Notes under the pieces: generated by a model
The model's database searches: none
What the model was told of the DNA's origin: nothing
The model's input: the letters and a program-made list of their open reading frames with translations, nothing else
Translations under genes and position numbers: made by a program
Assembly: GCA_052327205.1 (NCBI GenBank)
Contig: CM126208.1
Coordinates: forward strand, 207,452,001 to 207,516,000
DNA from: Somniosus microcephalus
Taxonomy: Eukaryota
Length of the DNA: 64,000 nt
Reading direction: 5' to 3'
Shown: piece by piece, positions 929 through 37,774 of the stretch
How the letters are laid out: each line of letters begins with the position of its first letter
Position numbering within the stretch: position 1 is the first letter of the stretch

Positions 929-1705
929 GCGGAATTCTGTAAAAGTATCCTCCGGACTCAAAGGAAAACAGTAAACAACGCATGCAGGGCGGAACTAGGC
1001 CAATACCCATTAATAATCACTATCCAAAAAAGAGCCACCAAATTTTGGAATCACCTACAAATGAGCAACCCCCAATGCTATCACTACGACGCCCTGAAAT
1101 GCCAAGAGCTGACCATAAAGAAGAATACCCTCAGTCAACTAGTCCTGGGACTCAATAAAGTAACTAATAACAATACTAACAATAACCAGCCCCAGGACAG
1201 TGACAGGGTAACACAAAGAATTCGACCCAACACAATCGTCGCTAAGCAAAAGGAAAAATATCTGTCATATTGGGCAGAAACAACAAAAACCCAAAGCAAA
1301 CTCAATTGCTACTTGGCCCTAAACAGACAATACAACATAGCTGATTACCTGACCATGGTAAAGGATAACAAACTGAGAAGAACCTTGACAAGGTACAGAC
1401 TTAGCGAACATAGCCTAGCGATCGAAAAAGGCAGACACAGGCAGACCAGGCTGCCAAGAGAAGACAGGATATGCTCTCACTGCAGTCAGGGAGTAGTCGA
1501 GACAGAGATGCACTTCCTCACAGCCTGTGGAAAATATCAGGGCATCAGAGAGAATTTCTATCAAAAATTCTCACAAATATGCCCTGAATTCAGAAATCTG
1601 ACTGACAACCAAAAACTCCCATTCCTACTGGGGGAGGAGAGAAGCTGTGTAACACTGGCGGCACACTATGTTACAGCTTGCCATGAACAGAGGGACAACC
1701 AGTAA
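929..1705 (+). pseudogene. C-terminal remnant of the RTE-X-like ORF2 (post-RT region and Cys/His domain)
   Basis: Frame is uninterrupted from the 5' junction to TAA at 1703-1705. The RT core is absent (5' truncation). Confidence 0.75.
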
Positions 1706-1892
1706 ACTAAGACAAGAGTATATATAAACAAGGCGAAAATATATTTATAAACTCAGGGATATACCTGTTTATACACTGTATGAATGGAACCGCGTTTATG
1801 TGTTCAACCATAAATGTATTTTGATGCTTTGGCAACATAAGATGTACCTTATCATGCCAATAAAGCGATTTGTATTGTATTGTATTGTATTG
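930..1892 (+). mobile_element. 5'-truncated non-LTR retrotransposon, RTE-X-like, with (TTGTA)n tail
   Basis: Open frame 929-1705 with NNACRAELGQYPL, RYRLSEHSLAIEKGR and C-terminal CxxC...ETEMHFL..C motifs. Followed by an AT-rich 3' UTR, AATAAA near 1859 and a TTGTA repeat tail. Confidence 0.8.
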
Positions 1893-4149
1893 TGAGGGAC
1901 CAGGATCCAGTGTGAGGGACCAGGGTCCAGTGTGAGGGACCAGGGTACAGTGTGAGGGACCAGGATACAGTGTGAGTGACCAGGATCCATTGTGAGGGAC
2001 CAGGATCCAGTTTGAGGGACCAGGGTACAGTGTGAGCGACCAGGGTACAGTGTGAGGGACCAGGATCCAGTTTGAGGGACCAGGGTCCAGTGTGAGGGAC
2101 CAGGGTCCAGCGTGAGGCACCAGGGTCCAGCGTGAGGCACCAGGATCCAGCATGAGGCACCAGGGTCCAGTGTGAGGCACTAGGGTCCAGTGTGAGGCAC
2201 CAGGGTCCAGAGTGAGGCACCAGGCTTCGGCGTGAGGCACCAGGCTCCAGCTTGAGGCACCAGGTTCCAGTGCGAGGACCAGTGTCCAGTGTGAGGCACC
2301 AGGGTCCAGTGTGAGGGACCAGGGTCCAGTGTGAGTGACCAGGATCCATTGTGAGCGACCAGCATACAGCGTGTGGGACCAGGGCATAGTAAGAGAGACC
2401 AGGGTACAATGTGATGGGCCAGGGTACAGTGAGAGAGCGCAGGGTACAGTGTGAGTGATCAGGATACAGTGTGAGGGATCAGCGTACAGTGTGCGGGGTC
2501 AGGGTATAGTGAGAGAGACCAGGGTAAAGTGTCAGGGACCCGGGTACAGCGTGAGAGACCAGGGTACAGCGTGAGTGACCAGGGTATAACGTGAGCGATC
2601 AGGGGACAGTTAGAGGGAACAGGAGACAGTGTGAGGGACCAAGGTACAGTGTGAGGGAGCAGGGTACAGTGTGAGCAGCCAGGATACAGTGTGAGCGAAC
2701 AGGATACAGTGTGAGCGAACAGGATACAGTGTGAGTGACCAGGATACAGTGTGATGCACCAGGATACTTTGAGAGGGACCAGGGGACAGGGTGAGGGATC
2801 AGGGTACAGTGCGAGGGATCAGGGTCCAGTGTGAGGGACCAGGGGACAGTGTGATAGACCAGGGGACAGTGTGAGGGACCAGTGTAAAGTGTGAGGGACC
2901 TGCATACAGTGTGAGGGACCATGGTACAGTGTGAGGGACCAGGGTCTAGTGTGAGGGACCAGGGTCCAGTGTGAGGTACCAGGATCCAGTGTGAGGGAAC
3001 AGGTTCCGGTGTGAGGGACCAGGGTCCAGTGTGAGCGACCAGGATACAGTGTGAGCGACCAGGGTACAGTGAGAGCGACCAGGGTACAGCGTGAGTGACC
3101 AGGGTACAACTTGAGTGACCAGGGTACAGCGTGAGCAACCAGGGTATAGTGTGAGGAACCAGGGTACAGTGTGAGGGACCAGGGTACAGTGTGAAGGAGC
3201 AGGGTACAGTGTGAGGGACCAGGGTACAGTGTGAGGGACATGGGGACAGGGTGAGAGAACAGGGGACAGTGTGAAGGAGCAGGGTCCAGTGTGAGGGACC
3301 AGGGTCCAGTGTGAGTGGCCAGGTTACAGTGTGAACGAAAAGGATACAGTGTGAGCGACCAGGATACAGTGTGAGGGATCAGGGGACAGTGTGAGGGACC
3401 AGGAGACAGTGTGAGGCACCAGGGTCCAGTGTGTGGGACCAGGTTCCAGTGTGAGGGACCAGGGTCCAGTGTGAGGGGCCAGGGTCCAGTGTGAGCGACC
3501 AGGATACAGTGTGAGTGAAAATGATACAGTGTGAGGGACCAGGGTCCTGTGTGAGCGACCAGGATACAGTGTGAGGTATTAGGGTACAGTGCGAGGGATC
3601 AGGGTACAGTACGAGGGATCAGGGTACAGTGTGAGTGACCAGTGTACCGTGCGAGGGACAGGGTACAGTGTGAACGAAAAGGATACAGTGTGAGTGACCA
3701 GTGTACCGTGCGAGGGACAGGGTACAGTGTGAGGGGTCAGGGTACAGTGTGAGGGATCAGGGTACAGTGTGAGCGACCAGGATACAGTGTGAGCGACCAG
3801 GATACAGTGTGGGCGACCAGGATACAGTGTGGGCGACCAGGATACAGAGTGAGCGACCAGGATACAGTGAGAGCGACCAGGGTACAGCGTGAGCGACCAG
3901 GGTACAGTGTGAGGGACCAGGGGACAGGGTGAGCGAACAGGGGACAGTGTGAGGGACCAGGTTACAGTGTGAAGGAGCAGGGTACAGTGTGAGGGACCAG
4001 GATACAGTCTGAGGGACCAGGGTACAGTGAGAGGGATCAGGGTACTGTGTGAGCGACCAGGGTACAGTGTGAGTGACCAGGGGACAGTGTGAGTGACCAG
4101 GGGACAGTGTGAGGGCCCAGGGGACAGTGTGAGGGACCACGGTCCAGTG

Positions 4150-7100
4150 TGAGGGACCAGGGTCCTGTGTGAGGGACCAGGATACAGTGTGAGCGAACAG
4201 GATACAGTGTGAGCGAACAGGATACAGTGTGAGGGACCAGGGTACAGTGTGTGAGGGACCAGGGAACAGTGTGAGGGACCAGCGTCCAGTGTGAGGGACC
4301 AGGGTCCAGTTTGAGCGACCAGGATACAGTGTGAGCGACCAGGATACAGTGTGAGGGACCAGGATACAGTGTGAGCAACCAGGATACAGTGTGAGCGACC
4401 AGAATACATTGTGAGCGACCAGGATACAGTGTGAGGGACCAGGGTACAGTGTGAGGGACCAGGGTCCAGTGTGAGGGACCAGGATACACTGTGGGTGACC
4501 AGGATACAGTGTGGGCGACCAGGATACAGTGTGAGAGACCAGGATACAGTGTGAGCGACCAGGATACAGTGTGAGCGACCAGGATACAGGCTCAGCGACC
4601 AGGATACAGGCTGAGCGACCAGGATACAATATCAGTGACCAGGATACAGTGTGAGCGACCAGGATACAGTGTGAGCGACCAGGATACAGTGTGGGTGACC
4701 AGGATACAGTGTGGGCGACCAGGATACAGTGTGGGCGACCAGTATACAGGCTGGGCGACCAGGATACAATGTGAGTGACCAGGATACGGTGTGACAGACT
4801 AGGATACATTGTGAGCGACCATGATACAGTGTGAGGGACCAGGATACAGCGTGAGGGACCAGGATACAGTGTGAGGGACCAGGGTCCAGTGTGAGGGGCC
4901 AGGTTTCCAATGTGTGGGACCAGGGTCCAGTGTGAGAGACCAGGGAACAGTGTGAGCGACCAGGGTCCAGTGTGAGCGACCAGGATCCAGTGTGAGGGAC
5001 CAGGGTCCAGTGTGTGGGACCATGGTCCAGTGTGTGGGACCAGGGTACAGTGTGAGAGCCCAGCGAACAGTGTGAGCAACCAGGGTCCAGTGTGTGCGGC
5101 CAGGGTACACTGTGAGCGACCAGGGTCCAATGTGTGGGACCAGGGTCCAGTGTGTGCGACCAGGGTCCAGTGTGAGAGACAAGGGAACAGTGTGAGCGAC
5201 CAGGGTCCAGTGTGAGCGACCAGGGTACAGTGTGAGCGACCAGGGTCCAGTGTGAGGGACCAGGGTCCAGTGTGTGGGAACAGGGTCCGGTGTGAGAGAC
5301 AAGGTTACAGTGTGAGCGACCAGGGTCCAGTGAGAGCGAACAGGGTACAGTGTGAGCGACCAGGTTCCAGTGTGAGCGACCAGTGTCCAGTGTGAGGGAC
5401 CAGGGACCAGTGTGAGGCACCAGGGTCCAGTGTGAGGCACCAGGGTCCATTTTGATGGACCAGGGTCCTGTTTGAGGGACCAGGGTGCAGTGTGAGCGAC
5501 CAGGATACAGTGTGAGCGACCAGGATACGATGTGAGGGACCAGAATACATTGTGAGGTGCCAGGGTCCAGTGTGAGGGACCAGGGTCCAGTTTGAGGCAC
5601 CAGGGTCCAGTTTGAGGCACCAGGGTCCAGTGTGAGGGACCAGGGTCCAGTGTGAGGGACCAGGGTCCAGTTTGGGGGACCAGGTTCCAGTGTGAGGGAC
5701 CAGGGTCCAGTGTGAGGGACCAGGGTCCAGTGTGAGCGACCAGGATACAGAGTGAGCGACCAGGATACAGCGCGTGGGACCAGCGCATAGTAAGAGAGAC
5801 CAGGGTACAATGTGATGGGCCAGGGTACAGTGTGAGAGAGCAGGGTACAGTGTGAGGGATCAGGGTCCAGTGTGAGGGACCAGGATACAGTGTGAGCGAA
5901 CAGGATACAGTGTGAGCGAACAGGATACAGTGTGAGGGACCAGGGTACAGTGTGTGAGGGACCAGGGAACAGTGTGAGGGACCAGCGTCCAGTGTGAGGG
6001 ACCAGGGTCCAGTTTGAGCGACCAGGATACAGTGTGAGCGACCAGGATACAGTGTGAGGGACCAGGATACAGTGTGAGCAACCAGGATACAGTGTGAGCG
6101 ACCAGAATACATTGTGAGCGACCAGGATACAGTGTGAGGGACCAGGGTACAGTGTGAGGGACCAGGGTCCAGTGTGAGGGACCAGGACACACTGTGGGTG
6201 ACCAGGATACAGTGTGAGCGACCAGGATACAGTGTGAGGGAGCAGCATACAGTGTGAGCAACCAGGATACAGTGTGAGCTACCAGAATACATTGTGAGCG
6301 ACCAGGATACAGTGTGAGGGACCAGGGTACAGTGTGAGGGACCAGGGTCCAGTGTGAGGGACCAGGATACACTGTGGGTGACCAGGATACAGTGTGGGCG
6401 ACCAGGATACAGTGTGAGAGACCAGGATACAGTGTGAGCGACCAGGATACAGTGTGAGCGACCAGGATACAGGCTCAGCGACCAGGATACAGGCTGAGCG
6501 ACCAGGATACAATATCAGTGACCAGGATACAGTGTGAGCGACCAGGATACAGTGTGAGCGACCAGGATACAGTGTGGGTGACCAGGATACAGTGTGGGCG
6601 ACCAGGATACAGTGTGGGCGACCAGTATACAGGCTGGGCGACCAGGATACAATGTGAGTGACCAGGATACGGTGTGACAGACTAGGATACATTGTGAGCG
6701 ACCATGATACAGTGTGAGGGACCAGGATACAGCGTGAGGGACCAGGATACAGTGTGAGGGACCAGGGTCCAGTGTGAGGGGCCAGGTTTCCAATGTGTGG
6801 GACCAGGGTCCAGTGTGAGAGACCAGGGAACAGTGTGAGCGACCAGGGTCCAGTGTGAGCGACCAGGATCCAGTGTGAGGGACCAGGGTCCAGTGTGTGG
6901 GACCATGGTCCAGTGTGTGGGACCAGGGTACAGTGTGAGAGCCCAGCGAACAGTGTGAGCAACCAGGGTCCAGTGTGTGCGGCCAGGGTACACTGTGAGC
7001 GACCAGGGTCCAATGTGTGGGACCAGGGTCCAGTGTGTGCGACCAGGGTCCAGTGTGAGAGACAAGGGAACAGTGTGAGCGACCAGGGTCCAGTGTGAGC

Positions 7101-9600
7101 GACCAGGGTACAGTGTGAGCGACCAGGGTCCAGTGTGAGGGACCAGGGTCCAGTGTGTGGGAACAGGGTCCGGTGTGAGAGACAAGGTTACAGTGTGAGC
7201 GACCAGGGTCCAGTGAGAGCGAACAGGTTCCAGTGTGAGCGACCAGTGTCCAGTGTGAGGGACCAGGGACCAGTGTGAGGCACCAGGGTCCAGTGTGAGG
7301 CACCAGGGTCCATTTTGATGGACCAGGGTCCTGTTTGAGGGACCAGGGTGCAGTGTGAGCGACCAGGATACAGTGTGAGCGACCAGGATACGATGTGAGG
7401 GACCAGAATACATTGTGAGGTGCCAGGGTCCAGTGTGAGGGACCAGGGTCCAGTTTGAGGCACCAGGGTCCAGTTTGAGGCACCAGGGTCCAGTGTGAGG
7501 GACCAGGGTCCAGTGTGAGGGACCAGGGTCCAGTTTGGGGGACCAGGTTCCAGTGTGAGGGACCAGGGTCCAGTGTGAGGGACCAGGGTCCAGTGTGAGC
7601 GACCAGGATACAGAGTGAGCGACCAGGATACAGCGCGTGGGACCAGCGCATAGTAAGAGAGACCAGGGTACAATGTGATGGGCCAGGGTACAGTGTGAGA
7701 GAGCAGGGTACAGTGTGAGGGATCAGGGTCCAGTGTGAGGGACCAGGATACAGTGTGAGCGAACAGGATACAGTGTGAGCGAACAGGATACAGTGTGAGG
7801 GACCAGGGTACAGTGTGTGAGGGACCAGGGAACAGTGTGAGGGACCAGCGTCCAGTGTGAGGGACCAGGGTCCAGTTTGAGCGACCAGGATACAGTGTGA
7901 GCGACCAGGATACAGTGTGAGGGACCAGGATACAGTGTGAGCAACCAGGATACAGTGTGAGCGACCAGAATACATTGTGAGCGACCAGGATACAGTGTGA
8001 GGGACCAGGGTACAGTGTGAGGGACCAGGGTCCAGTGTGAGGGACCAGGATACACTGTGGGTGACCAGGATACAGTGTGAGCGACCAGGATACAGTGTGA
8101 GGGAGCAGCATACAGTGTGAGCAACCAGGATACAGTGTGAGCTACCAGAATACATTGTGAGCGACCAGGATACAGTGTGAGGGACCAGGGTACAGTGTGA
8201 GGGACCAGGGTCCAGTGTGAGGGACCAGGATACACTGTGGGTGACCAGGATACAGTGTGGGCGACCAGGATACAGTGTGAGAGACCAGGATACAGTGTGA
8301 GCGACCAGGATACAATGTGAGCGACCAGGATACAGGCTCAGCGACCAGGATACAGGCTGAGCGACCAGGATACAATATCAGTGACCAGGATACAGTGTGA
8401 GCAACCAGGATACAGTGTGAGCGACCAGGATACAGTGTGGGTGACCAGGATACAGTGTGGGCGACCAGGATACAGTGTGGGCGACCAGTATACAGGCTGG
8501 GCGACCAGGATACAATGTGAGTGACCAGGATACGGTGTGACAGACTAGGATACATTGTGAGCGACCATGATACAGTGTGAGGGACCAGGATACAGCGTGA
8601 GGGACCAGGATACAGCGTGAGGGACCAGGGTCCAGTGTGAGGGGCCAGGGTCCAATGTGTGGGACCAGGGTCCAGTGTGAGAGACCAGGGAACAGTGTGA
8701 GCGACCAGGGTCCAGTGTGAGCGACCAGGGTCCAGTGTGAGGGACCAGGGTCCAGTGTGTGAGACCAGGGTCCAGTGTGTGGGACCAGGGTACAGTGTGA
8801 GAGCCCAGCGAACAGTGTGAGCAACCAGGGTCCAGTGTGTGCGGCCAGGGTACACTGTGAGCGACCAGGGTCCAATGTGTGGGACCAGGGTCCAGTGTGT
8901 GCGACCAGGGTCCAGTGTGAGAGACAAGGGAACAGTGTGAGCGACCAGGGTCCAGTGTGAGCGACCAGGGTACAGTGTGAGCGACCAGGGTCCAGTGTGA
9001 GGGACCAGGGTCCAGTGTGTGGGAACAGGGTCCGGTGTGAGAGACAAGGTTACAGTGTGAGCGACCAGGGTCCAGTGAGAGCGAACAGGGTACAGTGTGA
9101 GCGACCAGGTTCCAGTGTGAGCGACCAGTGTCCAGTGTGAGGGACCAGGGACCAGTGTGAGGCACCAGGGTCCAGTGTGAGGCACCAGGGTCCATTTTGA
9201 TGGACCAGGGTCCTGTTTGAGGGACCAGGGTGCAGTGTGAGCGACCAGGATACAGTGTGAGCGACCAGGATACGATGTGAGGGACCAGAATACATTGTGA
9301 GGTGCCAGGGTCCAGTGTGAGGGACCAGGGTCCAGTTTGAGGCACCAGGGTCCAGTTTGAGGCACCAGGGTCCAGTGTGAGGGACCAGGGTCCAGTTTGA
9401 GGGACCAGGTTCCAGTGTGAGGGACCAGGGTCCAGTGTGAGGGACCAGGGTCCAGTGTGAGCGACCAGGATACAGAGTGAGCGACCAGGATACAGCGTGT
9501 GGGACCAGCGCATAGTAAGAGAGACCAGGGTACAATGTGATGGGCCAGGGTACAGTGTGAGAGAGCAGGGTACAGTGTGAGGGATCAGGATACAGTGTGA
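4150..9600. repeat. Higher-order repeat of about 1.86-1.88 kb, roughly three tandem copies within the satellite
   Basis: Rare variant monomers recur at fixed spacing: CAATATCAGTG near 4627, 6510, 8373; CCCAGCGAACAG near 5060, 6943, 8806; CATTTTGATGG near 5448, 7311, 9194. Boundaries are approximate. Confidence 0.9.
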
Positions 9601-12600
9601 GGGATCAGTGTACAGTGTGCGGTGTCAGGGTATAGTGAGAGAGACCAGGGAATAGTGTGAGGGACCAGGATACAGCGTGAGTGAACAGGGTACAGCCTGG
9701 CCGACCAGGGTACAACGTGAGTGACCAGGGTATAGCATGAGCGACCAGGGGACAGTTAGAGGGAACAGGAGACAGTGTGAGGGACCAAGGTACAGTGTGA
9801 GGGACCAGGGTACAGTGTAAGCAGCCAGGATACAGTGGGAGCGGCCAGCATACAGTGGGAGTGGCCAGGATGCAGTGTGAGCGGCCAGGATTCAGTGTGA
9901 GTGGCAAGGATACAGTGTGAGCGGCCAGGATACAGTGTGAGCGGCCAGGATACAGTGTGAGCGGCCAGGATACAGTGTGAGCGGCCAGCGTACAGTGTGA
10001 GTGGCCAGCATACAGTGTGAGCGCCCAGGGTACAGTGTGAGCACCCAGGATACAGGGTGAGCGACCAGGGTACAGTGTGAGCGACCAGGGTACAGTGTGA
10101 GTGACCAGAGGACAGTGTGAGCGACCAGCATACAGTGTGAAGGAGCAGGGTACAGTGTGAGGGATCAGGGTACAGTGTGAGGGACCAGGGTACAGTGTGA
10201 GGGACCAGGGTCCAGTGTGAGCGACCAGGATACAGTGTGAGCGACCAGGATACTGTGTCAGCGAGCAGGATACAGTGTGAGCGACCAGGATACAGTGTGA
10301 GCGACCAGGATAAAGTGTGAGCGACCAGGATACAGTGTGAGCGACCAGGGTACAGTGTGAGGGACCAGGGACCAGTGTGAGCGACCATGATACAGTGTGA
10401 GCGACCAGGATACAGTGTGAGGGACCAGGATACAGTGTGAGCGACCAGGATACAGTGTGAGCGACCAGGGTGCAATGTGAGGGATCAGGGTCCAGTGTGA
10501 GGGACCAGGATCCAGTGTGAGGGACCAGGATACAGTGTGAGGGACCAGGGTCCAGTGTGAGGGACCAGGGTACAGTGTGAGGGACCAGGATACAGTGTGA
10601 GTGACCAGGATCCATTGTGAGGGACCAGGATCCAGTTTGAGGGACCAGGGTACAGTGTGAGTGACCAGGGTACAGTGTGAGGGACCAGGATCCAATTTGA
10701 GGGACCAGGGTCCAGTGTGAGGGACCAGGGTACAGTGTGAGGGACCAGGGTACAGCGTGAGGGACCAGGGTCCAGCGTGAGGCACCAGGGTCCAGCGTGA
10801 GGCACCAGGGTCCAGTGTGATGCACTAGGGTCCCGTGTGAGGCACCAGGGTCCAGAGTGAGGCACCAGGCTCCAGCGTAAGTCACCAGGCTCCAGCTTGA
10901 GGCACCAGGTTCCAGTGGGAGGACCAGTGTCCAGTGTGAGGCACCAGTGTCCAGTGTGAGGGACCAGGGTCCAGTGTGAGCGACCATGATACAGTGTGAG
11001 CGACCAGGATACAGTGTGAGGGACCAGGATACAGTGTGAGGGACCAGGATACAGTGTGAGCGACCAGGGTGCAATGTGAGGGATCAGGGTCCAGTGTGAG
11101 GGACCAGGATCCAGTGTGAGGGACCAGGATCCAGTGTGAGGGACCAGGGTCCAGTGTGAGGGACCAGGGTACAGTGTGAGGGACCAGGATACAGTGTGAG
11201 TGACCAGGATCCATTGTGAGGGACCAGGATCCAGTTTGAGGGACCAGGGTACAGTGTGAGTGACCAGGGTACAGTGTGAGGGACCAGGATCCAGTTTGAG
11301 GGACCAGGGTCCAGTGTGAGGGACCAGGGTACAGTGTGAGGGACCAGGGTACAGCGTGAGGGACCAGGTTCCAGCGTGAGGCACCAGGGTCCAGCGTGAG
11401 GCACCAGGGTCCAGTGTGAGGCACTAGGGTCCCGTGTGAGGCACCAGGGTCCAGAGTGAGGCACCAGGCTCCAGCGTAAGTCACCAGGCTCCAGCTTGAG
11501 GCACCAGGTTCCAGTGGGAGGACCAGTGGCCAGTGTGAGGCACCAGGGTCCAGTGTGAGGGACCAGGGTCCAGTGTGAGTGACCAGGATCCATTGTGAGC
11601 GACCAGGATACAGCATGTGGGACCAGGGCATAGTAAGAGAGACCAGGGTACAATGTGATGGGCCAGGGTACAGTGAGAGAGCGCAGGGTACAGTGTGAGT
11701 GATCAGGATACAGTGTGAGGGATCAGCGTACAGTGTGCGGGGTCAGGGTATAGTGAGAGAGACCAGGGTAAAGTGTCAGGGACCCGGGTACAGCGTGAGT
11801 GACCAGGGTATAGCGTGAGTGACCAGGGTATAACGTGAGCGATCAGGGGACAGTTAGAGGGAACAGGAGACAGTGTGAGGGACCAAGGTACATTGTGAGG
11901 GATCAGGGTACAGTGTGAGCAGCCAGGATACAGTGTGAGCGAACAGGATACATTGTGAGTGACCAGGATACAGTGTGATGCACCAGGATATTTTGAGAGG
12001 GACCAGGGGACAGGGTGAGGGATCAGGGTACAGTGCGAGGGATCAGGGTCCAGTGTGAGGGACCAGGGGACAGTGTGAGCGACCAGGGGACAGTGTGAGG
12101 GACCAGGGGACAGTGTGAGGGACCAGCATACAGTGTGAGGGACCACGGTACAGTGTGAGGGAACAGGTTCCGGTGTGAGGGACCAGGGTCCAGTGTGAGC
12201 GACCAGGATACAGTGTGAGCAACCAGGATACAGTGAGAGCGACCAGGGTACAGCGTGAGTGACCAGGGTTCAGCTGGAGTGACCAGGGTACAGCGTGAGC
12301 AACCAGGGTATAGTGTGAGGAACCAGGGTACAGTGTGAGGGACCAGGGTACAGTATGAAGGAGCAGGGTACAGTGTAAAGGAACAGGGTACAGTGTGAAG
12401 GAGCAGGGTACAGTGTGAGGGACCAGGGTACAGTGTGAGGGACATGGGGACAGGGTGAGAGAACAGGCGACAGTGTGAAGGAGCAGGGTCCAGTGTGAGG
12501 GACCAGGGTCCAGTGTGAGCGACCAGGTTACAGTGTGAACGAAAAGGATACAGTGTGAGCGACCAGGATACAGTGTGAGGGACCAGGGTCCTGTGTGAGC

Positions 12601-13396: not shown

Positions 13397-13661
13397 TGTG
13401 ATGAAATATTCCATTCATCACTGCCTGTGACTGTGGTCTGTTTCAGTGTCATTTCCCTTCCCCCAGTCCTCATTCTATTGTTTATTGGAATGTGCTGTGT
13501 GTAGGGCTCCGCCCATACCTGGCCCCTTTTGTAAGCTAGCTCAGTCTGGCCTCAGTCTCCAGAAGGAGGATGCCTCTCTCTCTTACGTGTTACTTTCTAA
13601 GTTAATAAAAGCCTTGTTTTGTTTCGCTAACATCGAGCCCCGGAATTATTGAGGCACATCA
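13397..13661 (+). repeat. 5' LTR of A1 (265 bp)
   Basis: TGTGATG...CACATCA. Differs from the 3' LTR by about 4 substitutions plus a 10-bp duplication (GGAATGTGCT) in the 3' copy. Confidence 0.95.
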
Positions 13662-13662
13662 A

Positions 13663-13675
13663 TTTTATTAACTTA
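13663..13675 (+). promoter_or_regulatory. PBS-position sequence complementary to the element's own LTR (candidate self-priming site)
   Basis: TTTTATTAACTTA begins 1 nt after the LTR and is the exact reverse complement of TAAGTTAATAAAA at 13598-13610. No TGG-type tRNA PBS is present. Confidence 0.7.
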
Positions 13676-13687
13676 TTTTTCAACACT

Positions 13688-24745: not shown

Positions 24746-24757
24746 TGTGTTGAAAAG

Positions 24758-24770: not shown

Positions 24771-26693
24771 TTGATGTGCCTCAATAAATCCGAGACTCAA
24801 TGTTAGCGGAACAAAACAAGGCTTTTATTAACTTAGAAGGTAACACACAGTGGAGAGGTGTCTTCCATCCAGAGGTCTGCAGTGCTGGATGTGAGGCACG
24901 GAGAGCCTGCTTACATAGGGGCCAGGTATGGGCAGAGCCCTACACACAATACAATACAAGGTGAGGAAACGGAACTGAGGTCAGGGAAATGAAACTGAAA
25001 CTAAACCACAGTCACAGGCACAATCACACAGAGAATACAGATGAGTGATGAATGGCATATTTCATCACAGTGGGCGACCAGGATACAGTGTGGGCGACCA
25101 GTATACAGGCTGGGCGACCAGGATACAATGTGAGTGACCAGGATACAGTGTGCCAGACCAGGATACAGTGTGAGCGACCATGATACAGTGTGAGGGACCA
25201 GGATACAGCGTGAGAGACCAGGATCCAGTGTGAGGGACCAGGGTCCAATGTGTGGGACTAGGGTCCATTGTGAGAGACCAGGGAACAGTGTGAGCGACCA
25301 GGGTCCAGTGTGAGCAGCCAGGGTCCAGTGTGAGGGACCAGGGTCCAATGAGTGGGAGCAGGGTACAGTGTGAGAGACCAGGGAACAGTGTGAGGGACCA
25401 GGGTCCAGTGTGAGGGACCAGGGTCCAGTGTGAGGGACCAGGGTCCAATGTGTGGGACCAGGGTACAGGGTGAGAGCCCAGGGAACAGTGTGAGCGACCA
25501 GGGTCCAGTGTGAGGGACCAGGGTCCAGTGTGTGGGACCAGGATACAGTGTGAGCGACCAGGGTCCAGTGTGTGGGACCAGGGTCCAGTGTGTGGGACCA
25601 GGGTCCAGTGTGTGGGACCAGGGTACAGTGTGAGAGCCCAGGGAACAGTGTGAGCGACCAGGATCCAATGTGTGGGACCAGGGTCCAGTGTGTGCGACCA
25701 GGGTCCAGTGTGAGAGACAAGGGAACAGTGTGAGCGACCAGGGTCCAGTGTGAGCGACCAGGGTACAGTGTGAGCGACCAGGGTCCAGTGTGAGGGACCA
25801 GGGTCCAGTGTGTGGGAACAGGGTCCGGTGTGAGCGACCAGGTTACAGTGTGAGCGACCAGGATCCAGTGTGAGCGACCAGGGTACAGTGTGAGGGGCCA
25901 GGGACCAGTGTGAGGCACCAGGGTCCAGTGTGAGGCACCAGGGTCCATTTTGATGGACCAGGGCCCTGTTTGAGCGACCAGGGTGCAGTGTGAGCGACCA
26001 GGATACAGTGTGAGCGACCAGGATACGATGTGAGGGACCAGGATACATTGTGAGGTACCAGGGTCCAGTGTGAGGGACCCGGGTCCAGTGTGAGGGACCA
26101 GGGTCCAGTGTGAGGGACCAGGGTCCAGTTTGAGGGACCAGGTTCCAATGTGAGGGACCAGGGTCCAGTGTGAGGGACCAGGGTCCAGTGTGAGCGACCA
26201 GGATACAGTGTGAGCGACCAGGATACAGTGTGAGCGACCAGGATACAGTGTGAGCGACCAGGATACAGTGTGAGCGAACAGGATACAGTGTGAGCGACCA
26301 AGATACAGTGTGAGCGACCAAGATACAGTGTGAGGGACCAGGTTACAGTGTGAGGGATCAGGGTACAGTGTGAGGGATCAGGGTGCAGCGTGAGGGATCA
26401 GGGTACAGTGCGAGAGAGCAGGGTACAGTGTGAGCGACCAGGGTACCGTGAGAGGGAGCAGGGTACAGTGTGAGCAACTAGGCTCCAGTGTGAGTGACCA
26501 GGTTACAGTGTGAGCGACCAGGGTACAGTGTGAGGGATCAGGGTGCAGCGTGAGGGATCAGGGTACAGTGCGAGAGAGCAGGGTACAGTGTGAGTGAGCA
26601 GGGTACAGCGTGAGCGATCAGGGTACAGCGTGAGTGACCAAGGTACAGCGTGAGAGACCAAGGTACAGCGTGAGAGACCAGGGTACAGCGTGA

Positions 26694-27033
26694 AATCACA
26701 GAAACCCCACAATGCAGATAGAGGCCATTTCGGCCCATCGAGCCTGCACCGACACATATCCCACCCGATCCCCGTAACCCCTACACCAACACATATCCCA
26801 CCCTATCCCCATAACCCCATGTATTTAATCCCCCTAACACTAAGGGTCAATTTATCATAGCCAATCAACCTAACCCGCACATCTTTGGACTGTGGGAGGA
26901 AACCGGAGCACCCGGAGGAAACCCACGCAAACACGGGGAGAATGTGCAAACTCCACACAGACAGTCACCCGAGGCGGGATTCGAACCCGGGTCCCTGGCG
27001 CTGTGAGGCAACAGTGCTAACCACTATGCCACC
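26694..27033 (-). mobile_element. tRNA-derived V-SINE (shark HE1-like)
   Basis: Minus strand shows A box (TGGCATAGTGG), B box (GGTTCGAATCC), V-domain GTGGAGTTTGCACATTCTCCCCGTG...GGTTTCCTCCCACAGTCCAAAGA and a CR1-like tail GGGCCGAAATGGCCTC. Possible TSD CGTGA (26689-26693 / 27034-27038). Confidence 0.9.
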
Positions 27034-30000
27034 CGTGAGTGACCAGGGTACAGTGTGAGGGACCAGGGGACAGTGAGAGGGACCAGGATCCATTGCGAGG
27101 GACCAGGGTCCAGTGTGAGGGACCAGGGCCCAGTGTGAGGGACCAGGGCCCAGTTTGAGGGACCAGGGTGCAGTGTGAGCGACCAGGATACTGTGTGAGC
27201 GACAAGAATACAGTGTGAGTGAAAAGGATACAGTGTGAGCGACCAGGATACAGTGTGAGCGATCAGGATACAGTGTGAGGGACCAGGGTCCAGTGTGAGG
27301 GATCAGGGTCCAGTGTGAGGCACCAGGGTCCAGTTTGAGGGACCAGGGTCCAGTTTGAGTGAACAGCGTGCAGTTTGAGCGACCAGGATACAGTGTGAGC
27401 GACCAGGATACAGTGTGAGGGACCAGGGTCCAGTGTGAGGGACCAGTGTCCAGCGTGAGGGACCAGGGTCCAGCGTGAGGCACCAGTGTCCAGCGTGAGG
27501 CACCAGTGTCCAGCGTGAGGCACCAGGGTCCAGTGTGAGGGACCAGGGTCCAGTGTGAGGGACCAGGGTCCAGTGTGAGGGACTAGGTTCCAGTGGGAGG
27601 GACCCGGGTGCAGTGTGAGAGACCAGTGTCCAGTGTGAGGGACCAGGGTCCAGTGTGAGGGACCAGGGTACAGTGTGAGGGATCAGGGTCTAGTGTAAAT
27701 GACCAGGATACAGTGTACGCGACCAGGATACAGTGAGAGCGACCAGGATACAGTGTCAGCGGCCAGGATACAGTGTGAGCGGCCAGGATACAGTGTGAGC
27801 GACCAGGGGATAGTGTGAGCGACCAGGGGACAGTGTGAGCGACCAGGGGACAGTGTGAGCGACCAGGGGACAGTGCGAGCGACCAGGGGACAGTGTGAAT
27901 AACCAGAATACAGTGTGAGTGACGAGGATACAGTGTGAGCGACCAGGATACAGTGTGAGCGACCAGGATGCAGTGTGAGCGAGCAGGATACAGTGTGAGC
28001 GACCAAGGTACAGTGTGAGCGACCAGGGTACAGTGTGATGGACCAGGATACAGTGTGAGAGAGCAGAGTACAGTGTGAGGGATTAGGGTAGTGTGAGGGA
28101 TCAGGGTACAGTGTGAGGGATCAGGGTATATTGTGGGGGATGAGCGTAAAGTGTTAGAGATCAGGGTATGCAGTGAGGGACCAGGGGACAGTGTGAGGGA
28201 CCAGGGGACAGTGCGAGGGACCAGGGGACAGTGCGAGCGACCAGGTTCCAGTGTGAGGGACCAGGGTCCAGCGTGAGGGACCAGGGTCCAGCGTGAGGGT
28301 CCAGCGTGAAGGTCCAGGGTCCAGCGTGAGGGACCAGGGTCCAGCGTGAGGGACCAGGGTCCAGCGTGAGGGACCAGGGTCCAGCGTGAGGGACCAGGGT
28401 CCAGCGTGAGCGACCAGGATAATGCGTGAGCGACCAGAATACAGTGTGAGTGAAAAGGATACAGTGTGAGCGATCAGGATACAGTGTGAGGGACCAGGGT
28501 CCAGTGTGAGGGACCAGGGTCCAGCGTGAGGGACCAGGGTCCAGCGTGAGGGACCAGGGTCCAGCGTGAGGCACCAGTGTCCAGCGTGAGGCACCAGGTT
28601 CCAGCGTGAGGCACCAGGGTCCAGCGTGAGGCACCAGGGTCCAGCGTGAGGGACCAGGGTCCAGTGTGAGGGACCAGGGTCCAGTGTGAGGGACTAGGTT
28701 CCAGTGGGAGGGACCCGGGTGCAGTGTGAGAGACCAGTGTCCAGTGTGAGGGACCAGGGTCCAGTGTGAGGGACCAGGGTCCAGTGTGAGGGAGCAGGGT
28801 GCAGTGTGAGCGACCAGGATACAGTGTGAGCGACCACGACACAGTGTGAGCGACCAGGATACAATGTGAGTGACCAGGATAGAGCGTGTGGGACCAGGGC
28901 GCAGTAAGAGAGACCAGGTTACAATGTGATGGGCCAGGGTACAGTGACAGAGAGCAGGTTACAGTGTGAGCGACCAGGGTACAGTGTGAGCGCACAGGGT
29001 ACAGTGTGAACACCCAGGATACAGTGTGAGGACCAGGGGACAGTGTGAGCAACCAGGGGACAGTGTGAGTGACCAGCGGAGAGTGTGAAGGACCAGGTTA
29101 CAGTGTGAGCGGCCAGGATACAATGTGAGCGGCCAGCGTACAGTGTGAGCGGCCAGTGTACAGTGTGAAGGACCAGGATACTGTGTGAGCGACCAGGATA
29201 CAGTGTGAGCTACCAGGATAGAGTGTGAGTGACCCGGGTACAGTGTGAGCGACCAGGGTACAGTGTGAGCGACCAGGGTACAGTGTGAGCGACCAGGGTA
29301 CAGTGTGAGCGACCAGGATACAGTGTGAGCGACCAGGTTACAGCGTGAGCGACCAGGTTACAGCGTGAGGGATCAGGGTACAGTGTGAGGGGCCAAGGGA
29401 CAGTGTGAGGGACCAGGGGACAGTGTGAGGTACCAGGGGACAGTGTGAGGGACTAGGGGATTGTGTGAGGGACCAGCGTAAAGTGTGAGAGTCCAGCATA
29501 CAGTGTGAGGGTCCACGGTACAGTGTGAGGGGCCAGGGTCCAGTGTGAGGGACCAGGGTCCAGTTTGAGCGACCAGGGTGCAGTTTGAGCGACCAGGATA
29601 CAGTGTGAGCGACCAGGATACAATGTGAGCGACCAGGATACATTGTGAGCGATCAGGATACAGTGTGAGCGACCAGGATACAGTGTGAGCGACCAGGGTA
29701 CAGTGTGAGGGACCAGGTTCCAGTGTGAGGGACCAGGGTCCAGTGTTAGGGACCAGGGTCCAGTGTTAGGGACCAGGGTCCAGTGTGAGGGACCAGCTTC
29801 CAGTGTGAGGGACCAGGGTCCAGTGTTAGGGACCAGGATCCAGTGTGAGGGATCAGGATCCATTGTGAGGGACCAGGGTCCAGTGTGAGCGGCCAGGATA
29901 CAGCTTGAGCGGCCAGGAGACAGCGTGAGCGACCAGGGGACAGCGTGAGCGACCAGGGGACAGCGTGAGCGACCAGGGGACAGTGTGAGCGACCAGGGGA

Positions 30001-32589
30001 CAGTGTGATGGACCAGGATACAGTGTGATGGACCAGGATACTTTGAGAGGGACCAGGGTACAGTGTGAGAGAGCAGAATACAGTGTGAGGGATCAGGGTA
30101 GTGTGAGGGATCAGGGTACAGTGTGAGCGACCAGGGTACAGTGTGAGCGCCCAGGGTACAGTGTGAGCACCCAGGATACAGTGTGAGCACCCAGGATACA
30201 GTGTGAGGACCAGGGGACAGTGTGAGCAACCAGGGGACAGTGTGAGGGACCAGCGGACAGTGTGAGCGACCAGGATACAGTGTGAGCGACCAGGGGACAG
30301 CGTGAGCGACCAGGGGACAGCGTGAGCGACCAGGGGACAGCGTGAGCGACCAGGGGACAGCGTGAGGGACCAGGGTCCAGCGTGAGGGACCAGGGTCCAG
30401 CGTGAGGGACCAGGGTCCAGCGTGAGCGACCAGGATACTGTGTGAGCGACCAGAATACAGTGTGAGTGAAAAGGATACAGTGTGAGCGATCAGGATACAG
30501 TGTGAGGGACCCGGGTCCAGTGTGAGGCACCAGTGTCCAGCGTGAGGCACCAGGGTCCAGCGTGAGGCACCAGGGTCCAGCGTGAGGGACCAGGGTCCAT
30601 TGTGAGGGTCTAGGTTCCAGTGGGAGGGACCCGGGTCCAGTGTGACAGACCAGTGTCCAGTGTGAGGGACCAGGGTCCAGTGTGAGGGAGCAGGGTGCAG
30701 TGAGCGCGACCAGGATACTGTGTGAGCGACCACGACCCAGTGTGAGCGACCAGGATAGAGCGTGTGGGACCAGGGCGCAGTGAGAGAGACCAGGTTACAA
30801 TGTGATGGGCCAGGGTACAGTGTGAGAGAGCAGGTTACAGTGTGAGCGACCAGGGTACAGTGTGAGCAACCAGGGGACAGTGTGAGTGACCAGCGGACAG
30901 TGTGAAGGGCCAGGTTACAGTGTGAGCAGCCAGGATACAGTGTGAGCGGCCAGCGTACAGTGTGAGCGGCCAGCGTACAGTGTGAGCGACCAGAATACAG
31001 AGTGAGCGACCAGGATAAAGAGTGAGTGACCAGGATACAGTGTGAGCGCCCAGGGTACAGTGTGAGCACCCAGGATACAGTGTGAGCACCCAGGATACAG
31101 TGTGAGTGAGCAACCAGGGGACAGTGTGAGCAACCAGGGGACAGTGTGAGAGACCAGTGGACAGTGTGAGAGACCAGTGGACAGTGTGAGCGACCAGGAT
31201 ACAGTGTGAGCGACCAGTATAGAGTGTGAGCGACCAGGGTACAGTGTGAGCGACCAGGGTACTGTGTGAGCGACCAGGATACATTGTGAGCGAACAGGAT
31301 ACAGTGTGAGGGATCAGGGTACAGTGTGAGGGGCCAAGGGACAGTGTGAGGGACCAGGGGACAGTGTGAGGTACCAGGGGACAGTGTGAGGGACTAGGGG
31401 ATTGTGTGAGGGACCAGCGTAAAGTGTGAGAGTCCAGCATACAGTGTGAGGGTCCACGGTACAGTGAGAGGGACCAGGGTCCAGTGTGAGGGACCAGGGT
31501 CCAGTTTGAGCGACCAGGGTGCAGTTTGAGCGACCAGGATACAGTGTGAGCGACCAGAGTACAGTGTGAGCGACCAGAATACATTGTGAGCGACCAGGGT
31601 ACAGTGTGAGGGACCAGGTTCCAGTGTGAGGGACCAGGGTCCAGTGTGAGGGACCAGGGTCCAGTGTGAGCGGCCAGGATACAGTGTGAGCGGCCAGGAT
31701 ACAGTGTGAGCGACCAGGGGACAGTGTGAGCGACCAGGGGACAGTGTGAGCGACCAGGGGACAGTGTGAGCGACCAGGGGACAGTGTGAGTGACCAGGGG
31801 ACAGTGTGATGGACCAGGATACAGTGTGATGGACCAGGATACTTTGAGAGGGACCAGGGTACAGTGTGAGGGAGCAGAGTACAGTGTGAGGGATCAGGGT
31901 AGTGTGAGGGATCAGGGTATAGTGTGAGGGATCAGGGTATATTGTGGGGGACGAGCGTAAAGTGTTAGAGATCAGGGTATGCAGTGAGGGACCAGGGGAC
32001 AGTGTGAGGGACCAGGGGACAGTGCGAGGGCCCAGGGCCCAGTGTGAGTGACCAGGGGACAGTGTGAGCGACCAGGGGACAGTGTGAGCGACCAGGGGAC
32101 AGTGTGAGCGACCAGGGGACAAGTGTGAGGGACCGGGGTCCAGTGTGAGGCACCAGGATACAGTGTGAGGCACCAGGATACAGTGTGAGGGACCAGGGTC
32201 CAGTGTGAGGGACCAGGGTACAGTATGAGGGACCAGGGTACAGTATGAGGGACCAGGGTACAATATGAGGGATCAGGGTACAGTGTGAGGGATCCGGGAA
32301 TATTGTGAGGGATCGGGGTATTAAGTGAGGGATCGGGGTGTAATGTGAGGAATCAGGGTATAATGTGAGGGACGAGCGTAAAGTGTTAGTGTTGTGTATT
32401 TGAATGTGTTAGAAATGTCCCCACATGGGATACCGTAGTTGTGATTTGCAATGCACTGTGGGAAATGTAGTGCATTGAGTGAAGAAGCACATTATAATAA
32501 AATGGCCATTACCTAAACACTCCACCCTGGAGTCTTTCTTTAATTGTTATAAAGATCAGGGTATAAAACCCCGTGAGACATAATAAAAT

Positions 32590-32600
32590 TGGCGACAAGG
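32590..32600 (+). promoter_or_regulatory. Primer binding site of element B, tRNA-Ser(GCU)-like
   Basis: TGGCGACAAGG is one mismatch from TGGCGACGAGG, the complement of the tRNA-Ser(GCU) 3' end as I recall it. Confidence 0.7.
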
Positions 32601-32885
32601 ACGAAGGACTTGCGCATCACTTTGCGCTGGAATCGGCGATGTTTAAAGTAAGTCACTTTGCACAGGAATCGGCGATGTTTAAAGTAAGAAGTTCCTGTCT
32701 TTTCTGAATGCATCAGCCCTAAACTGTGGGCGTGCCAATCACCTCGTAAAGGTGGCGGTTCGTGTGTTACACAAATAAGGGGAGAGTAACGATACAGTGA
32801 AACAAAGTGGAGAAAAAGGACTGTGATAAGGACTGGTAACAAAAAAATATATAAAATAAAAAAAATAAAAAAATAATTTTAAAAA

Positions 32886-35800
32886 ATGGCGATGCTAACC
32901 GGAGCCTTTGGACCATTTGATTTAACGGCGGAGCAATGGAGTGCTTATACAGAGCGTTTCGGATTTTTCGTGACTGCAAATGGCATTAAAGATGACATGA
33001 AAGTGGCAACGTTCCTCAGTCTGATCGGCACAAAAACATTTGGCTTGTTACGGAGTTTGATGCACCCGGATAAGCCCGGTGCTAAGACATATGATCAGAT
33101 TGTGGAAGTTTTGGAAACACATTTCGCACCCAAGCCGCTGCTGATTGCCGAGAGGTTCAGGTTTCACACACAAAACCAAGGGGAGGGTGAGTCCATAGCC
33201 GAATATGTTGCAGTGCTAAAGAAGCTAACTGAGCATTGAGTTCGGTGAAACTCTAAATGACACTGTCCGTAATAGGTTTGTGTGTAGATTAAGATGTGAA
33301 GCAACACAGAAGCGCTTGCTCATGACTGACAAACTGACACTTAATTCAGCAGTGGAGCTCGCTGTCTATGGAGTTAGCAGCTAAAGATGCACAGCTGTTG
33401 GGGGCTGCTATGAGAGTGCACAGGATAGCAGCTACACCGGATAAACATGCAAGGGGCGCCAGAGAGTGCTACAGATGTGGGAGGTCAGGTCATCAGCCAT
33501 CTGACTGCTGGTGCAAAGACCTGACCTGTCGGAAATGTGAAAAGAAAGGACACATTGAACGTGTGTATAAAGGGCAAAGCAAACAATCCTACACAGAGAC
33601 ACACAAAAACAAACAAAGAACCACACCTAACTGGCATTCTAAAAAGAAAAACCTACACTTGGTGAAACAAGAACAGGAAGACAGTGACACAGACTGTGCT
33701 GTCTTTCTTTAGGAATTTATGTTAGTTTTCCAGTTAATTCAGGGGTTTGAGTAATTTGGGTCGATTCCCATTGTGTGCCGCCACCTAGTGGATATTTGGT
33801 ACCTAGCAACTGCAGCAAAAGCGCAGTAAAGTGCAGTAAAGCACAATAAGTGCAGTAAAGTAAACTACTGTATATCACAGACCTACAGCCACACATGGTC
33901 TGGGAAGTTATATTGTTGCCACGCTTGAGCCTTGGATACTATTTGTCTGTAAGTACTTGAGAATGTTATAGATGATTAGTGTACACTATATTTTGCAGAA
34001 AATGTTTAGTTTGTAACTTTTCTCTGTAAGCAAACTTACACAGCTGGCCGTGAAGTGCTCACTCTCTGTCTAGCTGGTTAACTTGTAGCTGTATTTTGAT
34101 GCACTATGTACAGGGCTAATTTAAAGAGAATGCCTTCCAGTTTGCTAAATGTATATTCACAGTAAGCTGTGTTTCCATGTGTTTGGTAAGTTACATGCCA
34201 AATGTACTGTGTTGCTCAGGTGTACCTAAATTTGTGTATGCATATCAGTTATGTGCTTGTATACTAATGTGTGCTTCCATTTCTGTGTTGTATTTCAGTT
34301 TCACAATAAGAATCTTTCAGTAAAGTTTTACAAGAAAAGTCAAGCCTTGTGATTTTTATGGGAAAATATCAAGTTGTTAGCTACCTGTCTAGCTCTGCAT
34401 AGGAACGCGCTGCAAGGGCAGAATACAGACTCTGATGGGGAGAGGAATCTCCATGTGTTAACAGTGAATGGAGGCTCATCAGGCTATAGAGTCACTCCAC
34501 TACTAGAGGGAATACCAGTCAAAATGGAGCTGGATACAGGGGCCGCTGTCTCCTTGATCTCAGAGAAGCTATTCAAAGAAAAACTGAACCACCTATCATT
34601 GACGCTGGCCAAGCTCATCTTATAGACCTACACTGGGGAAACAGTCCCCATGCTGGGTAAGACGTAAGTCAAGGTGGAGCTTCATGGACAAACCGTGATG
34701 CTGCCAGTTTACGTGGTCAAGGGTGACTATCCATCCCTGATGGGCAGGCCATGGCTGGAGAAAATCCATCTGGATTGGGAAAAAGTGAATGCGGTGTCAG
34801 TCGAAGAGGCGGGGCTAGCGGCAGTGTTGACAAAGCATACAGCTGTCTTCGACGGAGAATTGGGGAGCATGAAAGGGATTACGGTCAAACTCAAGGTGAA
34901 GCCTGAGAGCCAGCCACGATTCCTGAAGGTCAGGAACGTTCCCTACGCCCTCAGACCAAAGGTGGAGGCTGACCTGGAGCGCCTGGTCAAGATAGGGGTC
35001 CTGGTGCCGGTTTCGCACAGTGAGTGGGCCACGCCCATGGTACCAGTGATGAAGAGAGATGGCACGGTTCGCTTATGTGGCGATTTCAAAGTAACAGTGA
35101 ATCCGGTGCTCTCAGCTGAACAGTACCCCCTCCCCATCATTGAAGATCTTTTCGCAGGTCTAGCAGGTGGTCAGAAGTTTAGCAAGATTGATCTATGCCA
35201 AGCCTACTTGCAGATGCATGTAGAAGAGGACTCACAGAAGCACCTCACCATCACCACCCACAAGGGCCTCTATAGGTACTGCCGCCTACCCTTTGGTATA
35301 ACGTCAGCACCAGCTTTGTTTCAGCGGCATTCCAGGGGTACGTTATCTCGACGATATCCTTGTCACAGGAAAGGACGACAACGAGCATCTGCAGAACCTG
35401 GCGAAGACACTGGGAAGACTTGAAGAACATGGCTTACGCGTTCGCAAGGACAAATGCGAATTTTTCAAGCCATCAGTGGAGTACTTAGGCCATGTCATCG
35501 ACGCGGACGGCCTACACACAGCACCGTCGAAAGTGAAAGCCATTGCCGATGCTCCTGCACCTACAAATGTCGGCCAGCTGCGGTCATTCTTAAGTCTCCT
35601 GAACTATTACGGAAAGTTTATTCCACAGCTGGCATCACTGTTGAAGCCATTACATGAGTTGCTGTGTCAGGGCAAGGCCTGGGCATGGACGAAGGAGTGC
35701 GAAGCTGCATTCAAGAAAGCCAAAGCAGCTTTGACTGACCCCAGAGTGTTGACGCACTTTGACCCGTCGTTGCAGATTCAGCTGGCCTGTGACGCGTCGC

Positions 35801-37308
35801 CTTATGGCGTCGGTGCGGTCGTGTCCCACATCTTTCCCTCAGGCGAAGAGAAGCCAATTGCATTCGCGTCAAGGTCCCTGAGCAAGGCGGAGCTGAAATA
35901 CCCGGTCAAAAAAGAGGCTTTGGGCATCATCTTTGGAATCAAAAAGTTCCATCACTACTTGTTCAGAAGGAAATTCACCTTGCTGACGGATCATCGTCCT
36001 CTGACATTGATCTTTGGTCCACACACAGGAATACCCTCCCTGGCAGCGGGCAGGATGCAGCGCTGGGTGCTGATGTTAAGCGCTCACAATTACAACATCA
36101 AATACTGGAGGTCAGCAGCACATGGCAATGCGGACGGATTGTCAAGACTTCCGCTGCCTGTGCCCTCTGAAGGCTGTGAGCAGAAGATTTTCTACTTTGA
36201 CATGGTGAGCAATGCCCCTGTCACGGCCCGGCAGGTCAAGAAAGAGACCAGAGTGGACCCTACGCTATCCAAGGTGCTGGATCGGGTAATGCGAGGAGAC
36301 GGATCACGGGTATCAGATGCACCACCTGAGCTCCTACCTTACCTGTCGAGAGGGAAGGAGTTGTCTGTCACGTCAGGATGCCTCCTTTGGGGCATGCGAG
36401 TGATCATACCACCAAAGCTGCGGAAACATGTCCTCAACGAGCTACACTCAGGACATTGTGGTATTGTCCAGATGAAGGAGCTGGCACGAAGCTACTTCTG
36501 GTGGCCCGGTCTGGATCATGAAATTGAAGTTGAAGCGAAATCATGCCCATCATGTGAGACAACCAGGGATACGCCACTGCATCCATGGCCAGCGACACCG
36601 TGGCAACGGATCCATCTGGATTTCACGGGACCAGTGGAAGGAGCGATGTTCCCGGTCGCGGTGGACTCCCATTCCAAATGGCCAGAGGTTGCAGTGATGT
36701 CCACTACCACTGCGGAGAAAACCATCGAGACTCAGAGAGATGTTTGGGCGATTTGGTCTGCCGGAGCAGATCGTAACCGACAATGGAACACAGTTCACAT
36801 CCCAGGAGATGGAGGAGTTCCTCAAGAGCAATGGAATCCAGCACACGTTCTCCGCGCCTTATCATCCATCCACGAATGGATTGGCGGAGAGATTTGTCAG
36901 AACGCTGAAACGCGCGTTGAACGACACTTTGTGGTGGGGGGCAATGTCCTCGCGCGTAACTACACCACCCCGGAGCGGTGGGTCCCGGCTACGGTCATTC
37001 AAAAGACGGGCCCCATTTCATACCGAGTCCGCACCAGAGATGACCGAACATGGAGACGGCATGTAGACCAGTTACTGCCAAGACAGTCGCCACAGGTAAC
37101 CCAAGAAACAGAGGATCAAGGACCTGCTGGGGGCTCCAGCAGGGACCGGTCGTCCAACCCTGAGACGGTGGCACCATCCACTCTTGTGCCATCGAGGGAG
37201 GAAGCCACATCTGCAGGGTCACGGGAGAGCCAGCCAGAGCCTGCTCCTGAGACTAGGCGTTACCCCCAAAGAGAAAGGCAGCCTCCAGAGCGCCTTATTT
37301 ACAGTTAG
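32886..37308 (+). pseudogene. gag-pol of element B, with multiple stops, frameshifts and deletions
   Basis: Gag WSAYTERF and two CCHC-type knuckles, protease LDTGAA, RT IDLCQAYLQ and YLDD (near 35343), RNase H ACDASPYG, integrase H..GH...CxxC, HLDF, TDNG and NGLAER. Confidence 0.9.
33695..34425 (+). mobile_element. Solo LTR, probably BEL/Pao type, nested in element B
   Basis: TGTGCTGTC...GGCAGAATA termini with 5-bp TSD CAGAC (33690-33694 / 34426-34430). Removing it restores the host frame ...SDTD|SDGERNLH. The BEL call rests on the style of the termini only. Confidence 0.7.
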
Positions 37309-37774
37309 TGCTAACCTGTGTGCATGGGGCAGAATAATCCCCAGGGTTAGTGGAATGTAGAGGTAGTCTACCCTCTCTTCCAAAGTTATAGTCATTTTCA
37401 GTTATTCTGTTTTGTGGACATTCTATTTTAAGGGGGAGGAATATGTTGTGTATTTGAATGTTAGAAATGTCCCCACATGGGATACCGTAGTTGTGATTTG
37501 CAATGCACTATGGGAAATGTAGTGCATTGAGTGAAGAAGCACATTGTAATAAAATGGCCATTAAAGAAAGACTCCAGGGTGGTGTTCAGTTAATTGTTAT
37601 AAAGATCAGGGTATAAAACCCCGTGAGACATAACAGTTAGAGATCACAGTATACTGTGAGGGACCAGGGGACAGTGTGAGGGACCAGGTGACAGTGTGAG
37701 GGTCCACGGTACAGTGCGAGAGACCAGGGTACAATGTGAGAGAGCAGGGTACAGTGTGAGGGATCAGGGTATAA

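Follow-up and report, generated by a model that had tools for sequence, protein, structure and literature searches.

The stretch of DNA analysed here, referred to below as the window, comprises 64,000 nucleotides of the 6.45-Gb genome of Somniosus microcephalus (G000:C7:207452001-207516000). Positions 1-37771 are occupied by a satellite with a 20-bp unit, recognized by Tandem Repeats Finder (TRF) and by monomer tiling, and the monomer is numbered T1 A2 Y3 A4 G5 T6 G7 T8 G9 A10 G11 S12 G13 A14 C15 C16 A17 G18 G19 R20. Five retroelements have inserted into this array: a long and a short interspersed element (LINE and SINE) and three elements with long terminal repeats (LTR), all but the LINE listed here or below with their target-site duplications (TSD). 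The SINE and the CR1-like repeats presumably resemble those of cartilaginous fish.

1..37771, + strand: array of the 20-bp satellite, with five insertions in it (TRF and tiling)
930..1890, + strand: LINE, 5'-truncated, with a (TGTAT)n tail that overlaps the target TGT at 1891-1893, monomer 6-8
13397..17745, + strand: Gypsy-type LTR element A1, with LTRs at 13397-13661 and 17471-17745
20690..25069, - strand: Gypsy-type LTR element A2, TSD GTGGG at 20685-20689 / 25070-25074, monomer 7-11
26694..27033, - strand: SINE with a (TTCTGTGA)n-type tail, TSD CGTGA at 26689-26693 / 27034-27038, monomer 6-10
32390..37635, + strand: Gypsy-type LTR element B, TSD GTTAG at 32385-32389 / 37636-37640, monomer 7-11

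It was proposed from the sequence of the window (the original prediction) that all five insertions hit one phase of the monomer, and that the array exposes a single site per unit to unrelated retroelements. The TSDs of the three LTR elements do lie at one phase, 7-11, including that of A1 (GTGAG at 13392-13396 / ATGAG at 17746-17750). A1, A2 and B have the TG..CA LTRs, TSD, polypurine tract and order of protease, reverse transcriptase (RT), RNase H and integrase typical of Ty3/Gypsy elements. Element B, which sits at the degenerate end of the array and was earlier called unrelated to A, belongs with A to distant lineages, with about 28% RT identity between the two. The shared pentamer holds strictly for the LTR elements; the SINE and the LINE overlap it, the former being displaced by one base (6-10) and the latter joining at 6-8. 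A common phase for every insertion in the satellite did not survive extension of the analysis, because the same array runs about 20 kb further upstream of the window and carries there a sixth insertion, of the same SINE, at monomer 19-1. A Pfam search with the window LINE gave no match, and its earlier assignment to RTE-X was not confirmed. A BEL element with TSD GTCTG, also mentioned earlier, was not located in the 37.8-64 kb part of the window in a search for exact TG..CA pairs.

Further 20-bp arrays were found with two satellite patterns on contigs 1, 3, 4 and 7; these come from the matches listed and do not represent every array. The sample consisted of seven array regions with 19,704 monomers (about 394 kb), six of which contained LTR insertions. 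The caller returned 28 rows. Six were dropped from the 5-bp count, having no LTR support or representing LINE ends; three rows with 4-bp TSDs, one of them among the dropped six, were set apart, and three duplicate rows were collapsed. One insertion boundary was corrected and four LTR events were added by eye, while about 10 complex nested gaps were not callable. Once copies arising by array duplication had been collapsed, the LTR insertions with 5-bp TSDs amounted to 21 independent events, 20 of them seen from both sides.

Counted directly, the TSDs of these 21 insertions start at position 7 in eight cases, at 19 in six and at 16 in three, with one each at 8, 12, 14 and 15, so that independent insertions recur at three exact bases of the monomer. 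When the three LTR elements of the window are left out, 5 of the 18 remaining insertions still occupy 7-11 (P=0.0014 versus uniform), and the clustering of phases in this held-out set is pronounced (coincidence test, P=4e-5 versus uniform). Thus, the phase bias suspected in the window is real beyond it. It has, however, two or three favoured spots per monomer and not one: 13 of the 18 held-out insertions lie off 7-11, six of them at 19-3, which refutes one exposed site per monomer. Family A, to which A1 and A2 belong, was itself found in the satellite at phases 7, 7 and 16, the copy at 16-20 residing in another array; with several satellite phases and diverse TSDs outside, it is not a site-specific element. 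The probability originally attached to three matching TSDs, (1/20)^2, is also too small, as the held-out phase frequencies give P of 0.035-0.064 instead of 0.0025. A candidate LTR insertion at phase 1 was discarded because no second LTR was found.

The satellite does not appear to be singled out as a target by these elements. The end of the family-A LTR is matched 11,398 times genome-wide, and the 55 host junctions among 100 matches listed correspond to about 8,400 insertions, or 1.3 per Mb. Within the sampled satellite three family-A insertions were seen versus 0.51 expected (P=0.015) with the discovery array included, and one versus 0.46 expected without it. No held-out enrichment was therefore observed, let alone a strong enrichment of the centrophilic kind, and the notion of a landing pad is not supported by this comparison of insertion densities. 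Two genome-wide patterns for junctions of family A had 112 and 42 matches, of which 100 and 42 were listed. The pattern joining the A end to GACCAGG fell recognizably in this satellite in 1 of 100 matches listed, and 20 fetched candidate junction loci all lay in other repeats or unique DNA (0 of 20 in the satellite). Such patterns miss variant monomers (both A2 and the phase-16 copy escaped them), hence satellite counts obtained in this way are lower bounds. Family B is small and dispersed, with 40 genome-wide matches; of 30 LTR loci retrieved, two were in the array, both being those of the window itself. As a separate observation, family A often lies within other tandem repeats, of various periods.

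To what extent ordinary target preference explains the peaks was assessed with matrices built from 100 half-sites outside the satellite, 68 from family A and 32 from family B, the former including 40 of the 51 distinct flanks among matches listed. The outside motif is weak and reaches beyond the 5-bp TSD, with G/C at the TSD ends and A/T at flank +2. The TSD matrix of family A ranks phase 7 first. When four satellite pentamers were counted genome-wide for this family, GTGAG showed the strongest enrichment (24 seen versus 6.9 expected, 3.5x; GTGTG 2.0x, GGGAC 1.8x, GGTAT 1.7x), and YAY]ACT, the bottom-strand context of site 7, is enriched 2.9x (17 versus 5.9); all of this counting was done by eye, with normalization to a 232-kb local background that includes element sequence. 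The enrichment of YAY]ACT is about four times that predicted by a matrix of independent positions, which means that the matrix under-scores site 7. If the share of site 7 is assumed to be 14-20%, the 5 of 18 held-out insertions there become unremarkable (P=0.10-0.28). Resemblance of satellite half-sites to outside sites correlates with phase use in two versions (Spearman 0.48, p=0.03; 0.43, p=0.056). The mundane alternative mentioned in the original prediction, a GTNNG-like integrase preference, thus stands in so far as GTGAG is favoured by family A, and falls short in so far as the family-A TSD matrix yields 3.0 expected events at phase 7 versus the 8 of 21 seen (P=0.006). Ordinary preference accounts for the peaks in part: the context of site 7 is favoured genome-wide by family A, and site 19 is left unexplained.

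Single-base hotspots do not need a satellite at all, as shown by a dispersed CR1-like LINE that family A has entered repeatedly at a single base. Six family-A junctions, on six contigs and with three LTR variants, were found at one identical base near the 3' end of this LINE, where about 0.02 would be expected if copy number is roughly estimated from the 7 copies of this context present in 974 kb; the TSD was seen on both sides in one of the six, the windows of the solo-LTR search having been set for an LTR longer than the actual one. Two more repeat positions outside the satellite had three family-A hits each. Two simple rules were tried and rejected: a central pyrimidine-purine step in outside TSDs (52 of 100 versus 46% background, no signal), and the RYXRY rule, by which phase 2, with 0 events, would be favoured.

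A different cause applies to the non-LTR elements. Their 3' junctions were read by eye and duplicates collapsed to 22 events, of which 14 lie at 19-4, seven at 6-10 and one at 13-15. At all 22 there is an overlap of 2-5 bases between tail unit and monomer. Because the monomer has T only at positions 1, (3), 6 and 8, T-rich tails can overlap it almost nowhere besides 19-4 and 6-10, and the junctions are confined almost wholly to these two places. The claim that non-LTR elements are drawn to the LTR site is therefore contradicted by 15 of the 22 junctions, which lie elsewhere, mostly at 19-4, and follow tail microhomology. The same overlap accounts for the LINE and the SINE of the window, and no exposed site shared with LTR elements is needed. 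CR1/L2-type LINEs and their SINEs display tail-target microhomology at 3' junctions, and the satellite junctions resemble them in this respect, with no notable difference. By analogy with such elements, annealing of the tail to the target would be the cause of the overlaps. Annealing of the RNA primer is mentioned for LINE junctions in a study which, in its available text, treats mainly 5' junctions (PMC4760211).

Taken together, the pattern is probably a product of Gypsy integrase hotspots intrinsic to the sequence and repeated by the satellite, combined with tail-homology joins of LINEs and SINEs, with no dedicated targeting. Under this explanation retroelements would enter the satellite at about the ordinary rate. 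As each monomer presents the same 20 candidate sites, a weak, context-dependent integrase preference would be repeated thousands of times and would become visible in each monomer as two or three hotspots one base wide, with TSDs at 7-11, 19-3 and 16-20. LINEs and SINEs would join at places where 2-5 bases of their T-rich tail match the monomer, nearly always at 19-4 or 6-10. The five-way match in the window could then be the top LTR hotspot drawn three times, accompanied by two tail-homology junctions. Intrinsic sequence or DNA shape would presumably also explain why the site-7 peak is as large as it is and why site 19 has a peak. Several results weigh against this explanation. Symmetrised matrices from the 100 half-sites give 0.2-3.0 expected events at 7 versus 8 seen, and 0.4-1.5 at 19 versus 6 seen; with flanks included, the matrices rank 16, 15 or 11 top, and phase 11 has 0 events. 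Family A shows a depletion (0.67x) of YAY]AGT, which is the context of site 19 read forward, and none of the six site-19 events belongs to this family. The best-half-site version of the correlation with phase use is not significant (p=0.22, 0.36). Finally, both LTR lineages use both peaks (Fisher p=0.33), as they would under a shared chromatin cause. Symmetrised matrices of widths 0-6 and 15 were tried, and none reproduced the peaks.

Chromatin is indeed the basis of one other explanation. Rotationally phased nucleosomes on a two-turn monomer could expose two windows, with TSD starts near 7-8 and 17-18, within which the integrase would pick 7, 16 and 19. We regard this as conceivable though unlikely. 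A 10-bp harmonic fits the phases better than a uniform distribution (p=0.0003; held-out, 0.005; peak at 7.3-8.3) and improves on the matrices (p=0.0002-0.07, depending on the baseline); the matrix-favoured phases 11, 5 and 3 have 0 events; the A/T bias of outside sites at flank +2 appears again at +11 (p=0.002, uncorrected); and the peaks are common to two LTR lineages. However, harmonics of 4 bp and 6.7 bp perform as well as or better than the 10-bp one in most fits, and the phase data show a pair of narrow spikes, with spacings of 12 and 8 bp, in place of a smooth 10-bp wave. Five candidate insertions with 4-bp TSDs, two of them without LTR verification, are scattered over five phases (4, 10, 13, 15 and 18). 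Moreover, site 19 is used only in T3 arrays (6 of 15 events, versus 0 of 6 events in arrays of the C3 type, p=0.12), a possible sign of a base effect. The related proposal, that the 20-bp two-turn monomer itself fixes nucleosome rotation and that a dozen independent Gypsy families of two distant lineages have recorded two windows about one turn apart, is likewise conceivable though unlikely.

The excess over the matrices could, on the other hand, be apparent, arising from small-sample noise, hidden non-independence of events, or loss of phases through array turnover or calling. The sample is small (n=21), arrays copy insertions (2-5 copies of some events), the uncallable gaps are about 10 in number, and the matrix is based on 100 half-sites and shifts with its width. 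But duplicates were collapsed, events sharing a phase differ in family or orientation, and the caller tried every phase and still left the held-out clustering described above, so that we give this explanation a low probability. A single exposed site that attracts LTR and non-LTR elements alike and turns the array into a landing pad is refuted in its original form. All five insertions of the window do fall within 6-11, and site 7 is the LTR phase most used overall; yet most of the held-out LTR events and of the non-LTR events lie elsewhere, the array of the window has its sixth insertion at 19-1, family A lacks held-out enrichment and its junctions, among the genome-wide matches listed, are almost never recognizably in this satellite.

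By analogy, the closest known case to hotspots of the intrinsic kind is HIV-1 integration at exact positions of Alu, where single-base hotspots are described as intrinsic to integrase (10.1101/2022.10.26.513837). In that account, as in our proposal, a weak integrase preference yields single-base hotspots through many copies of one sequence, with two main positions per repeat consensus. The satellite case differs in that it concerns natural germline insertions of many Gypsy families into a tandem 20-bp unit; its hot sites are not palindromic, and they are known here from sequence. The literature on LTR target-site motifs (PMC3276498; 10.1101/034991), as far as its available text goes, agrees with our finding that families A and B have a weak motif extending past the 5-bp TSD and that averaged matrices under-predict particular contexts; averaged palindromic matrices are stated there to misdescribe individual retroviral integration sites (10.1101/034991). 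It differs in that the averaged motif measured here does not alone reproduce the satellite peaks. LTR elements inside satellite arrays are also known from the centrophilic Tal1, which integrates into CENH3-bearing CEN178 arrays; Tal1 is, according to the available text, confined to arrays through chromatin, whereas family A is dispersed over about 8,400 sites with no held-out enrichment, and for Tal1 the same text describes an ordinary local base bias and no monomer phase (PMC11735389). In our literature search, the coverage of which left out most subscription journals and supplements, no report was found of LTR insertions that favour particular monomer phases within a short satellite. Nucleosome-directed retroviral integration has a periodicity of about 10 bp, and the satellite peaks resemble it in that roughly one helical turn separates them within a monomer of two turns. 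They differ from it in their 12/8-bp spacing and in being fitted equally by other harmonics, and the evidence here is that of sequence alone.

Several observations concern the surroundings of the arrays. A different, approximately 10-bp-based satellite forms a 56-kb array upstream of the window (~G000:C7:207371500-207428000), in which no insertion was detected, whereas the 20-bp arrays are heavily invaded; the inverted 20-bp array 400 kb away is bordered by a similar repeat. At G000:C3:203.27-203.53 Mb array segments have been duplicated along with their insertions, giving 2-5 copies of single SINE, LINE and LTR events. At G000:C3:186574785-186607379 an inverted satellite block with LTR insertions of its own lies inside a 32-kb span bounded by an LTR element with a 4-bp TSD. 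Outside the satellite, positions 52058-54350 of the window hold a pair of 575-bp inverted repeats (95%) flanking an RT-like frame, presumably resembling a Penelope-type element, and similar ends occur in three satellite gaps; at 54624-55076 there is a tandem unit of 74-77 bp in six copies.

A separate matter is the structure of the group-A elements themselves, in which the following two segments of A1 are involved.

13598..13610, + strand: part of the A1 LTR that covers the poly(A) signal and is complementary to the leader immediately 3' of the 5' LTR
13663..13675, + strand: A1 leader at the primer-binding position, with no tRNA-type site, pairing 13/13 with 13598-13610

All 10 group-A Gypsy elements examined (A1, A2 and eight relatives in other arrays, about 4.3 kb long, the relatives having 53-96% RT identity to A1) are without a tRNA-type primer site. 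Instead, the 14 bases following the 5' LTR pair at 11-14 of 14 positions with a stretch of the LTR that spans the poly(A) signal and lies 36-57 bases before the LTR end. Compensatory changes between group-A families keep the pairing, as in a covarying stem, and in shuffled A1 sequences at least 13 pairs were obtained in 9 of 2000 trials. This suggests that the stem may serve for Tf1-like self-priming or for masking of the 5' poly(A) signal. The literature search yielded no clear description of such an LTR-leader stem in a vertebrate Gypsy group. The stem may deserve more attention than the phase finding itself.

As to the latter, it implies that when insertions share a phase in a tandem repeat, the null expectation must come from real target preferences and not from the reciprocal of the period. 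When many families have invaded a short satellite, their insertions amount to a natural test of how integrases choose sites on a single template. If the part left unexplained here (site 19, and the absence of events at 11 and 5) were a true product of nucleosome rotation, the array would provide a sequence-only record of germline chromatin, and old satellites would preserve a fossil trace of how nucleosomes are set in the germline.

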